DNA of 64,000 bases from Bdellovibrionales bacterium (GTDB taxonomy: Bacteria; Bdellovibrionota; Bdellovibrionia; Bdellovibrionales; JAUICD01), in NCBI GenBank assembly GCA_965262715.1, contig OZ253553.1:2304001-2368000 (forward strand), written 5' to 3'. Positions 33,501 through 39,500 of this stretch are shown in pieces (within the stretch, counting starts at the first letter, position 1; each line of letters starts with the position of its first letter). Position numbers: made by a program.

Positions 33501-36500
33501 AGGTTTTTATATACTTAAGAAATGCAACTTCTGTTTTGCCTTCACAGTGAATAAGGATGGACTTCTTAGTGATTTTTTTGTTTTTCTTAGGACTTTTCAT
33601 AAATTCAAATATCAATAATCAATATCAGGAAAACCGCCGTAAACCCCTGACATATAATTCTTAAATAGATTATCTTTATCCTTTATATCTTCAAATTGAT
33701 CTAATCTATAGGTTGAAGATTTATTGTCCTTAGTCTTTTTTACTAAATGTACCTGATATTTGTTTAAATCCATTAAGATGGGACTCATGTGGGATGTAAA
33801 TAAAATTTGCCCTTGATTCTTTTGTTCTGTAAATAAGTGTAAGATTCTAGAGACGGCTTGAGGATGAATTCCTAATTCCAATTCGTCAATCACTATTAAT
33901 AATTTATTTTTAAGACTTTTGAGAATTGGATATAGTTTTGTAAAAAGGTTTTGAGTGCCATGTGATTCTGCAAATAGAGGTAGTGTGAAAGGGTTGTTTT
34001 GTTGATCAGGACGTGACATAAATGGTATTGTAATCATTATAGACTTACTGTGTTTATCAAGTGCTTGCCCTTTTTCGAGTGTTAAAGTGTGTTCTCCTAA
34101 GTCTAAGTTTTTTAAAATGTCCTTCATTTGATCTAGTAGGTCATCATCTTTTTGATACTTTCTTGAAAATTTGTTTAACTCTAAGATTAGATCGGGATTG
34201 GGTTGCTCCAAAGACATTTGGTGTTCCCAAAAATTTTTAATTTTTTGCATTTCTGGTTCATTGATTTGAGCAAAAGTAGAAATGATAGAAGCATTTGCGC
34301 GAGTTAAGTGGATGTTTTTTTTAAGTAGAGGTTCTGTTTTTTTGTCTTCAAAGTTTGTCTCTATAAAATTTTGTTTTTTTCTCTTAAAAATCATCACATT
34401 TTCTTTAGGAGATATTTTTTGAAGTTTTTCCAATAGAACTCCCTGTCTATTTAATTCAAAAGAATAATCATAATATAAATTATTAATAAAAAAGCCTACA
34501 TTGAATGAGCTTTTATCTTCGTTGGACATATATGGTTGATAAATTGGGGACCCCGGGTTTTTATCGTGAAAAGAATTAACAATGAAATATCTTATAAAAT
34601 CAAGAGCTTTTATTACATTTGTTTTACCGGAAGCGTTTGGGCCTAAAATAGCTGCTATTTTAGAAAGTCTTGTGTCAGCACATTTGGTGAACGCTCCTGT
34701 TTTTGGAGCATTTTCATCTACTTCAAAAGAGATCATGCCCTCATCTTTAAAAGAGAGAAAGTTTTTCCAACTAAAATATTTAATCATTGTCTTTCCTTAT
34801 TAACGATATCTTATAAATTAAAATTCATTTAACAACATAACATAGAGTTAAATAGATAAAAAGTCAAACAAGCAATATTAAAATAGGCTTCCAGTATCTT
34901 TATCTAAAGAATCTTTTTCTGTGATTCTGCTGTCTAAGAGGGTTTAAATAGAATGTATTATTTATATTGCCAGGGTTAAGGTTTCCTTAACATGATGTAA
35001 AAAAAGAGAAATATCTCCTTACTCAAAATAAACGGATTTTTGAGGTAGTTAGTATTTTCTTGAAGGCGTAAGCCTTCAGGCTAACTGCCCAAAAATGGCC
35101 AGAAGCTCGCCTCAAGAGGCCAGTTTATTTTGAGTGAAACAGGTTAGAATATTTCTTTAATACTAGCATCTTCAACAGAAGTTGTTTTTAAAATACGTTG
35201 GAGTTCATTATTAGCTAGGGTTTTATCAGAGTATACACCAGAACTGACTCTATACCAAGTTTGATCATTATCATCAGTAAAGGACATGTAAAAAGCATCA
35301 ATTCCTTGATCCTTTAAATTTTTTAAATAAGAAATAGCTTGATCTTCCTTTTTGTAAGTTCTTAGTTGTATAGTGTATTTAGCAGAAAGAGTTTTTTTTA
35401 CTTTTAAAGGCAAATTATTATACGAAGAACTTTCCATTTGAGGTGTTTCTGAAGACTCTAACTCATTTTTCTCTGGTATTTTTTTGTCTTGATGTTTTTG
35501 AACCTCTTCTGTGTCAGAAGAAGGTTTTCTTTGAGAAGGATTGGTTGTGGTGGTCGTATTTGTTTGGGAATGCACTTCTTGTGGAGGTTTTTTTTCTGAA
35601 TGAATATCCTGTACTTCTGAATGGGTATCCTTGACTTGCTTTTGATCAGGTTGAACTTTTTTAGTGTTAGAATCTAATTCTGAAGATATATTAACTGATT
35701 GAGGGTCAGTATCACTCCATTGTTTACCTAAAAATATACCAAGAGAAAAAGTCATTAGGCAAACAAAACACATGCTTGTCCATTTGATAGTTTGAATAAT
35801 ACCAGACTTCCAAAGATTTATTTGTTTTTCATTTCTCATAAATATCCTTTTTAACTTCTAAATAAAAAATTATCAATTTTATTTGTATTATTTTTTTTAA
35901 TACTAATAATTAAAATCTTTTGAGTTAAAGTTATTCTAAATTAATTTGGTAGAACATACTATCAACCTTAAGATTTTTAGCTTTTCAAATGACATCAAAA
36001 AAGTCAAAACTTTAGTAAGGTTATAGAATATCTTTCGTTGTGTCAAACCGTGTCAAAAATTTGGTGAAACCTACTCTTAAGGTTATATTTTTTGTGTCAT
36101 TTTTGACATGTCTATTCTCTTAGTATTTCTAGCATTTTTAACCTATCGGCTGCTTTTATTGTTTTATGTTATAAAAGGGTTAGATTTTTTAGATAAAAAA
36201 ATATTTTTCCAATTATGAAACATTATAACTATCCATAAATCTAAAAAACATAGGGACAGAGCACTAGTTGGTATTTTATTTGCCCTATAAGTCAATAAGA
36301 CACATCTCATTAGACGAAAGGAAAATAATTATTTTAAACCAAAGCATTGAAAATAATATAACAAAAAAGTGTCAAGATTTAGAACATTTAAAAACTGTAT
36401 ATATTAAAACACTTTGGCTAGCTCTATCTCTAGTTCTTTCTCTATTTATAGGTTTGTCCGGAGAGTATTTATACCTATTAAAAGACCAAAAGACCTTGAT

Positions 36501-39500
36501 GAGCTCCATTTCAATTCAAAAGAATAAGCAAAATACAACAAATTTTATTTCTATAGATAATGTTTTGGTTTTAACTTATGAAGAAAAGAGTGAGAAAAAA
36601 ACAGTGTACTTGGATAAAAAAGTTAATGAATATAGGGTGTTAGCAAAAGTGCAAATGCAATTAGAAATGGATAATTATGAGATGTTAAACCAAGTTAAAG
36701 ATCAAAAACAATATATAAAGGATATGATGGCAGTTATTTTATCTGGTATGACATATAGAAAAATTTTACAGGAAAAGTCACAAGTTACTTTAAAAATAAA
36801 TATTAAAAATAAAATAAATAAGTTTCTCTCTAGAGGTAAAATTAAGGATATTCATAATATAAATATTATAAATTTGTAGATAGTGGTTATTAATTGTACA
36901 CATTAATTGTCATTTAAATATACACTTTATAAAAAATGACTAAATAGTATACAAAATATTTGAAATAGAAAAATATTAAAAAATATTTTAAAAAAATGAA
37001 AAATTGGCATGAAAAAGTTTGATCTTTTTTGAGAATTATATGTCTGATAAGATTATATTAATGAGACAGGAGGGATAAGGATGTCATCTAATAAAACAAA
37101 AGCGTCAGCATTGCTGAGAAAGTATAAGGAAGATCCACAACAACTTACAAGTATGCAAAAAGACAAATTAATTATGGAGTATGCGCCATTAATTAAGTTT
37201 ATTGCATATAAAATTTCTGTTAGATTACCTTCTAATATTGAATTAGATGACTTAATTGCTAGTGGAGCAATTGGCTTGATGGATGCTATAGAAAAGTATG
37301 ATCCATCTAGAGACAACACATTCAAAACTTATGCCGAATTTCGTATACGTGGAGCTATTCTAGATGAGTTAAGAGCTCAAGATTGGGTTCCACGTAGTAT
37401 TAGAGATAAAGCTAAATTGCTAGAACGAACTTTTTCTCAACTTAAAAATCAATTAGGAAGAGATGCAACAGATCAAGAGGCTGCTGAAAAATTAGGTTTA
37501 AATATGGATGAATTTCACGAATTAACTTATCAAGTCTGTCCTGTAAGCATGATATCTTTAGATCACCAAACAACATTTAGCAGTATAGATAAAAAGTCTA
37601 TGCTAAACTTTTTAGAAGATTTTAAGATAGATAACCCTTTTAATGAATTAGAAACAAAAGCTATTAAATCTATTATAACAAAATCTATTAACAACTTGTC
37701 TGAAAAGCATAAAATCATTCTTTCTCTCTATTATTATGAAGATTTAAATTTAAAAGAAATAGGACGTGTTCTTCGTATCACAGAAAGCAGAGTATCTCAA
37801 TTGCATGCTCAAGCCATATTACGGCTCAAGGCTAAGTTATCAGTCTATCTTGATAAAGAGGTGCAAAAGCAAAAGGATGTGTCAAGAAATATCAACAGTT
37901 GTAATAACCAAGAAAAATATTTACAACATTAAGTAATGTGGCTTATGTTTGTTATAATGTAAATAAGAAATATTCACATTATTAACAAAAGCACAAGAGT
38001 CAGTTTGAAAAACTTAAATCATCTTGAAGAGTTTATACGGATAAATTATCCTTTTTGGAGAGAAGCTCTAAAAAACTACCCTATTCAAAAAGACTTATTA
38101 TTTAGTCGATCTATTCCTTTAAATCAAAAAATTTTTGAGGCATGTCATCTTATTATTAAAGCTTTTTGGCAATTAAGAAAGAATATTGCTTATCAAAACT
38201 ATATCAAAACTAATTATTCTATTGGTTGTGATCCTTGTAATTACTCTATACTTATGTGCTATGACTTTCACATAACAGGTGAAGATGTTAAATTGATCGA
38301 AATAAATACAAATGCTTCATTTGCGATAATTGCTGGAGTTTTAAGTCGTATGAATAAGCAGACATTACCTTTTGATTTATCTATGAAAGATTATGATGGG
38401 CATGAATTTTTAAGAAAGGCTATTGAGGAAGAAATAGCACTTTGTAAATTAGATGCAGGAGAGATAAATATCGCCATTATGGATGATCATCCTGAAAAAC
38501 AAAAAGCGTATTTTGAATTTCATTATTATAAAAATCTTTTTGAACATTGGGGTTACAATACTGTGATTTGTGATCCTTCAGAATTAGAATGGGATTCAAA
38601 GCATAAAGTGTTAAAGCACCATTTAGGCCAAACAATTCACTTTGTTTATAATCGTTGCTGTGATTTTTTATTAGAAAATCCTAAAAATAGACATTTAAAG
38701 CAGGCCTTTATTCATACGAAAACATGTTTTAGTCCTAATCCTTATGAATATTGCTTATTAGCACATAAACAGAGATTAATAGATCTTTCAAATAAAGATT
38801 TTTTAAGTTCATTAAACTTATCTAGAGATGAGCTGGAAATTATAAAGAAAGGTGTACCTTTTTCTTCTTCAATACGAGATATATCAAAAGAGCAATTATG
38901 GTCACAGCGTAAGAATTTATTTTTTAAGCCAAAAACTCTTTATGGTGGTAAGGGTGCTTTTAGAGGCGCCTCTATTTCTAGGAAAAAACTTGAATCTATA
39001 TATGATGAATCTTATATGGTTCAAGAATATTTTCCACCATCAATTTTTGAAGGTTACAAGTATGATTTGAGAATTTATACTTATAAGTCAAAGCCTTATC
39101 TTGCGCTAGCAAGATTGTATCGTGGTCAAGTGACAAATGCCAGTACAGTAGGTGGAGGACTTGCTAGCATAGATTGGCTGTTGAATGAATAGACACCAAT
39201 CTTCCATTTGAATGATTTCCAGATTCTCAGAAAATGAAATGTCTGAAAGTCTTATTTCAAAGGGCTAGCTTAAGAAGGATCAAGTCATGATATTGAAATC
39301 ACTTGATGTTTGCGCAATATAGTCGTTTTTATGTGCTGCCAATATATTTATATCAAATATTTTACAAGGTCATCTTTTTTAAGGATAATTTTTAATATAA
39401 AGACATAAGTTCAAATAGCAAGAGCTGGAAGTTTTCTCAGAGAGAAACAAAAGTAATACCTATAAAGATAGAAGTAATAAATATAAATGATAAAAGTTCT

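Follow-up and report, generated by a model that had tools for sequence, protein, structure and literature searches.

The fliL–fliA locus

The window analysed here is a stretch of 64,000 nucleotides from a Bdellovibrionales genome, designated G000, which is the genome under study. On its forward strand a diverged but open fliL frame (36268..36879; the TTG start is uncertain) is followed by an intact fliA gene encoding sigma-28 (37081..37932). FliL scores 28 bits against the Pfam model PF03748, over but near the cut-off of 24.6. It has a single membrane anchor and a FliL-fold periplasmic domain, and its predicted model matches H. pylori FliL (E 2.6e-7). FliA lies well over the cut-offs of TIGR02479 (268 vs 189.6) and NF005413 (258 vs 201) and contains sigma regions 2, 3 and 4, as expected of the FliA/WhiG sigma-28 family. 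Regions 2.4 and 4.2, the segments that recognize the -10 and -35 elements, are near-identical to those of flagellated relatives. The G000 protein is 85% identical to that of G001, with a dN/dS of ∼ 0.06.

A SPOR-domain gene (Pfam SPOR; 35144..35839, reverse strand) diverges from fliL. The same gene occupies the same place in flagellated G002, G009 and G024, where it points away from a twelve-gene run and so marks the head of the ancestral operon. The order of that operon is fliL-fliM-N-O-P-Q-R-flhB-A-F-G-fliA; the middle genes were assigned by sequence and order, and Pfam models back the names FliL and FlhA. G000 retains both ends, and its fliL and fliA are the remainder of the ancestral operon. 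Between them lies a putative promoter, TGAGAATT...TGATAA (37030..37056, forward strand), that is not of the sigma-28 type; no sigma-28 site was found before G000 fliA. By eye, a like element precedes fliA in G001, G002, G009, G011, G024 and G124, and another is present at the mapped start of Bd3318 (FliA). Judged by this element, fliA of G000 seems to be transcribed from a promoter of its own, which makes hitch-hiking a weak explanation for the presence of fliL.

Loss of the flagellum and retention of fliA

The first-pass annotation had described G000 as devoid of flagellar and chemotaxis genes apart from fliL and an intact fliA, and here family models and tblastn agree with it. None of the models for flagellin, FlhA, FlgM, MCP, FliG, CheW or MotB found a match in G000. 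When the flagellar and chemotaxis ORFs clustered in G002, G009 and G024 served as queries, nothing specific was returned beyond FliL and FliA, the remaining matches being to generic ATPase, ParA or receiver domains. As to the MotAB stator with which FliL would partner, no MotB plug was found in G000, and for its four TolQ-family proteins the TolQ/ExbB models give higher scores than the MotA models. FlgM, the export apparatus and the flagellin targets of the canonical FliA–FlgM switch were likewise not found. Because the completeness of G000 is rated at 92.7%, we read absence as 'not found'; a real loss is nevertheless likely from the sequence, because the operon junction is clean and G001 shows the same pattern.

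In a set of 31 genomes, the 8 without flagellin are also the 8 without FlhA. Across 161 genomes of the order, 28 lack FlhA and 160 have FliA; fliA is kept in 27 of the 28 (flagellin, looked for in 13 of the 28, was not found). G022, the exception, was considered as a natural loss of fliA and rejected: the neighbours of fliA in the congeneric G011, rpoH and aspS, are missing as well, and flgM and the tadC site (see below) are kept, so that the absence looks like an assembly gap. FlgM is kept in G007, G011 and G022, whereas G000 has no match to it. The fliA gene of G004 is frameshifted by one base within a run of A, which may be an error or real. Where dS could be estimated, dN/dS of fliA is 0.06–0.08, and the DNA-binding regions of FliA are conserved in 13/13 aflagellate genomes. 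On a tree of 40 genomes built from TadC alone, flagellum loss needs seven changes, at least four of them forced by strong branches; G103, without FlhA, belongs to a genus in which 11/12 genomes have it. These sequence data indicate that several Bdellovibrionales lineages separately lost the flagellum and kept fliA.

The companion gene is almost as persistent. A FliL-like frame lies upstream of fliA in 16/17 aflagellate loci, G007 being the exception; 10 of these frames are over the Pfam cut-off, 3 are below it and 3 are recognized by position and alignment only. The remnants take the form fliL-fliA, fliL-fliO-fliA with flgM elsewhere (G011) or fliO-flhF-flhG-fliA (G007). For fliL, dN/dS is 0.20–0.38 in the four pairs with an estimable dS, three pairs being close to saturation; the value between G000 and G001 is ∼ 0.38, at ∼ 35% identity. 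Tests of four aflagellate genomes found no MotB, and the substitution ratios indicate that the orphan FliL is kept under purifying selection without it. In two genera FliL appears to be lipid-anchored. That the orphan protein acts at a gliding or Tol motor is a guess.

Predicted sigma-28 sites in G000

The motif TTAAG-N16-CCGATA is found in 92 of 140 mapped attack-phase promoters of Bdellovibrio bacteriovorus (PMC3627812). Allowing up to two mismatches, this consensus occurs at 57 sense-upstream sites in G000 with a spacer of 16, compared with 9–26 at six other spacers and 17 on the antisense strand. The G000 sites are thus real as a spacer-specific sequence signal. The looser pattern TWWAG-N-CCGAWW of the first-pass annotation also reproduced (27 sense vs 4–5 antisense for 2494 called genes; 7/25 genes with a QNC lipobox). 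Raw genome-wide counts of TWWAG-N16-CCGAWW show no excess over a reversed control (37 vs 39), so only position-aware tests were used. A scoring matrix was trained on 54 G000 sites outside the QNC genes; these were picked with the published consensus, and the size of the regulon is therefore soft: the excess is ∼ 50 by consensus (76 vs 20–31 of 1927) and ∼ 70 by matrix (99 vs 27 of 1533, a count that takes in the training sites). Predicted sites precede pilT, a tadA-like gene, tadG, a pilin-like gene and rpoN, as well as NtrC activator, PilZ, MltA and RCC1 genes.

Within the window, TTAAG-N16-CCGATC (358..384, forward strand; scoring 17.4 with the matrix and differing from the published consensus at one position) precedes a predicted regulon member, a 1222-residue lipoprotein with Ig-like and RCC1 repeats (412..4080, forward strand; Pfam Big_13, RCC1) whose lipobox is canonical (LISC), not QNC. 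A weaker predicted site (53979..54005, reverse strand; score 12.9) lies before a repeat-protein gene (52880-53944) and could be chance. We infer that FliA transcribes from the predicted sites.

QNC-lipobox lipoproteins

Sigma-28-type promoters had been noted to concentrate before lipoprotein genes with an FQNC lipobox, and this over-representation holds. At a matrix score of ≥ 10, sites precede 12/25 QNC genes of G000, or 11/16 upstream clusters counted as independent even though the encoded proteins form three homology groups, against 96/1622 other genes (controls: 26 antisense, 35 at spacer 18). With duplicates dropped, the site stands before 10/17 QNC and 5/65 canonical lipoprotein genes. 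The QNC genes are the most enriched class but a minority, contributing ∼ 10–12 of the ∼ 50–70 excess predicted promoters, and none of the 25 lies in the window. Rather than one protein family, they comprise PKD/Ig-like (20), HExxH metalloprotease-like (3, resembling M4/M36 proteases) and RCC1 (2) groups; the PKD match, from the atlas (0.88), is a lead only. The lipobox was assigned from signal-peptide shape, and lipidation and surface exposure are predicted. The largest family, eight near-identical Cys-rich paralogues, has no good site (top score 5.2). A polymorphic toxin was considered for one of these paralogues and rejected, the weak colicin-DNase match being below cut-off and within repeats.

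The same lipoproteins had been called lineage-specific, which does not stand. The lipobox codon pattern is present in all 31 genomes, with 6–21 copies in each of the 23 flagellated ones (control 0–4), 12–22 in the four aflagellate genomes of this family and 2–3 each in aflagellate G007, G011, G021 and G022. In seven flagellated genomes 113 loci were sampled, and a signal-peptide filter retained 56 of them, including one that is probably a permease. A predicted site precedes 20/56 (wrong spacers 5/112, antisense 5/56). The aflagellate sample, 60 loci from G001 and five other aflagellate genomes, left 34 after filtering, with a site before 18 (G001 13/15, G003 4/8, G072 1/2, G103 0/9). Matches taken were 30/34 for G031, 30/38 for G002, 30/32 for G001, 7/21 for G005, 14/16 for G010, 6/7 for G014, 11/14 for G103 and 10/12 for G003. 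The FQNC gene of B. bacteriovorus Bd16 (L097) has a 27-base promoter core identical to that of the mapped attack-phase promoter of Bd0500, a gene ∼ 22-fold higher in the first of two RPKM columns, which we read as attack phase (PMC3627812). The sites thus did not come to precede QNC genes after flagellar loss, as had been proposed; they already do so in flagellated genomes, and the sequence comparison indicates that the link is ancestral. Lipobox adhesins of Bdellovibrio have been treated elsewhere, in the text available without naming QNC (PMC11003981).

The Tad pilus and a putative predation gene set

tadC is present in all genomes searched. A predicted sigma-28 site lies upstream of it at 40/40 loci (30/30 and 10/10; 18 of these genomes are aflagellate), within two mismatches in 39/40, and matches the mapped Bd0470 promoter; G015 gave no tadC locus for this survey. 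The footprint is without an outside null, the related genomes are not independent, and cross-genome footprinting covered tadC only. In G000 itself scores are low at the main flp-cpa locus (9.7) and at the tadA/B operon (7.4). As judged from the conserved site, the conserved predicted target of FliA is the Tad pilus.

Tad and type IVa pili, Agl-Glt clusters, bd0109-like genes and FHA-GGDEF proteins are markers of predation. G000 has both pili, a bd0109-like gene, an FHA-GGDEF protein and two Agl-Glt-like clusters (the GltG model is below cut-off, its tail domain above), and its invasion-pole genes are intact. In B. bacteriovorus FliA could not be deleted, and it drives a TAD promoter in E. coli, the tested promoter being that of flp1, not tadC (PMC5430801). 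Invasion without flagella is possible by gliding (PMC13689555).

Discussion

Gene content, synteny, selection and site conservation, all observed, are the basis of the explanation that we hold with good confidence: fliA outlived the flagellum because in the ancestor of the Bdellovibrionales its product already served as the general sigma factor of the attack phase, with Tad and surface proteins under its control. The ancestral FliA would have driven Tad pilus operons and many surface proteins, including part of the order-wide QNC class. Once swimming stopped, flagellar and chemotaxis genes would have been deleted, among them the middle of the fliL-to-fliA operon, which in G000 would have left fliL beside fliA. 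fliA itself would have had to stay, since the programme of pilus and surface genes would rely on it. With FlgM gone, the timing of FliA probably depends on the fliA promoter and on protein turnover. In genus g1, adhesin-like and protease QNC lipoproteins that inherited the site would then have multiplied. FliA would be essential in G000, and we infer a predatory life that uses pili and gliding.

An added cause, compatible with the ancestral attack-phase role, may be that FliA is an essential cell-cycle or developmental sigma factor that acts chiefly on targets other than pili, such as rpoN, clpPX or regulators, in cells that may no longer be predators. FliA is undeletable even in host-independent B. 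bacteriovorus (PMC5430801), pili would be dispensable for such growth, and predicted sites precede rpoN, NtrC and kinase genes; but the tadC site is universal, albeit in a footprint of tadC alone, and the invasion-pole genes are intact, and we regard this account as possible rather than probable. Less probable still is that the orphan fliL is kept only for carrying the promoter that transcribes fliA. In G003, G103 and G150 fliA directly follows fliL and lacks its own promoter element, which speaks for such a role; G000 and G001, however, keep fliL despite a separate element, and a promoter needs no open frame under purifying selection.

The first-pass annotation had proposed that FliA was rewired after flagellar loss to lineage-specific FQNC lipoproteins and kept for them. 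The share of QNC genes with a site is indeed high in g1 (G001 13/15, G000 11/16 clusters, vs 20/56 in flagellated genomes), but three homology groups among the 25 G000 proteins mean that a high share can be inherited. The lipobox is order-wide, the link is present in flagellated genomes and at the mapped Bd0500 promoter, QNC genes hold a minority of the G000 sites, G103 has none before its nine, and four aflagellate genomes have only 2–3 matches. As a general cause of retention this rewiring is already contradicted, and we consider it improbable. What survives of the proposal is that FliA is kept, under purifying selection, and that its predicted sites are over-represented before QNC genes; the conserved site is that of tadC. 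That fliL and fliA are decaying ends of the operon and the sites relics is most unlikely of all, since the low FliL identity and score and the G004 frameshift are outweighed by dN/dS well below one for both genes where dS is estimable, by the intact DNA-binding regions and by retention in 27/28 genomes.

The Bd3318 regulon of B. bacteriovorus (PMC3627812, PMC5430801) resembles that of G000 in the orthologue, in the TTAAG-N16-CCGATA site, spacer-specific and upstream of genes including tadC, and in the target classes Tad, surface anchors, proteases and NtrC activator. Unlike it, G000 has no flagellum, chemotaxis or FlgM matches and thus only the predicted non-flagellar arm. Essentiality and phase-specific expression of FliA are published for B. 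bacteriovorus only (PMC3627812, PMC5430801). Legionella oakridgensis is also non-flagellated, having lost the regulon and kept FliA for other genes (PMC5655016); it keeps FlgM, as do G007, G011 and G022 but not G000, and in Bdellovibrionales the loss recurs in several lineages with fliL kept. Sigma-28 of Chlamydia (PMC10597470) and WhiG of Streptomyces (PMC13595943) likewise serve development without flagella. Those are old, phylum-level specializations, the Chlamydia regulon comprising two genes, whereas the Bdellovibrionales losses are recent, repeated, beside flagellated sisters and accompanied by ∼ 50–70 predicted promoters. Loss of flagellum and chemotaxis was already reported for sponge-associated Bdellovibrionota MAGs, together with loss of the type IV pili that G000 keeps; the available text of that account does not mention FliA, FliL or promoters (PMC9944714). 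The Bdellovibrio FliL Bd1076 has effects beyond swimming, on host dependence and biofilm, but it stands alone, is driven by FliA and binds MotB3 (PMC11323537); by synteny the G000 protein is the operon-head, Bd3329-like copy, and MotB was not found. Bd3329 is barely expressed in B. bacteriovorus (PMC3627812).

Already known, then, are FliA as an essential attack-phase sigma factor and sigma-28 without flagella in L. oakridgensis and Chlamydia. The repeated convergence and the orphan FliL are new, and the feature is otherwise mostly explained by known biology. Among the matches listed in the open literature, with subscription papers outside its scope, we found neither the QNC lipobox nor an orphan FliL, and nothing on 'FQNC' in Bdellovibrio; nor did we find repeated convergence or the tadC footprint described there.

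More speculatively, repeated loss may have exposed a hidden non-flagellar core in which FliA is master of the pilus and surface programme, the operon-head FliL, sometimes lipid-anchored, scaffolds an Agl-Glt/Tol motor or the invasive pole, the cells are swimming-free pilus-and-gliding predators and QNC proteins are an attack-phase class of surface lipoproteins; we advance this tentatively, as a conjecture that could well prove wrong. The ancestral attack-phase reading has wider consequences. It would give independent evolutionary support to a claim made for one species, that sigma-28 is a core regulator of predation, and it singles out tadC as a predicted target that the whole order shares. 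When genomes are read, fliA or fliL alone should not be taken to indicate motility. FliL is normally a stator accessory, and the aflagellate lineages, as deletions made by nature, would suggest that it also has a role independent of the flagellum.

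Neighbourhood of fliA in the window

The gene directly after fliA (window 38005–39192) encodes a 395-aa protein with a syntenic counterpart, 56% identical, in G001, an aflagellate relative from the same genus. Profile searches against Pfam and NCBIfam gave no match for it. Positions 39919–48547 of the window are occupied by a Type II-B CRISPR-Cas locus that includes cas1, a Cas9 of 1644 aa (TIGR03031 above cut-off in a profile search) and an array with 16 repeats of 37 nt, in which one pair of spacers is nearly duplicate. At 33082–34787, an ATPase with a match to the AAA_21 domain and its small partner gene form a pair that looks like those of defence systems or of type IV toxin-antitoxin modules. 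A DDE transposase, identified by domain match, lies at 27483–29213; IS elements are present in numerous copies across the genome (G000). One IS family (8 copies) carries a sigma-28-like site, which we rejected as false.

Cys-rich FQNC lipoproteins

FQNC lipoprotein genes with Cys-rich repeats were located in L208 (G000 54661–65360), with six more copies. The eight near-identical genes in G000 encode Cys-rich repeats of ∼ 52 aa in variable number and are frequently adjoined by IS elements. A Pfam scan of two copies returned no family above cut-off.

Flagellar remnants and sigma factors

Three genomes of the order in which flagellin and FlhA were not found, G022, G011 and G007, retain flgM without an export apparatus (L268, L269 and L270); G007 further retains csrA-like and fliW-like genes, flhF, flhG and fliO. 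In genera g43 and g61, FliL (L272–L275, L279 and L280) has a Cys after a hydrophobic stretch, an apparent lipoprotein signal. In G004, a one-base frameshift at a run of A residues interrupts fliA (L193:9381–10190); the shift may be either an error or real. A predicted sigma-28 site (score 16.1) lies 190 nt upstream of rpoN in G000 (L203:3346–4794) and suggests a sigma cascade.
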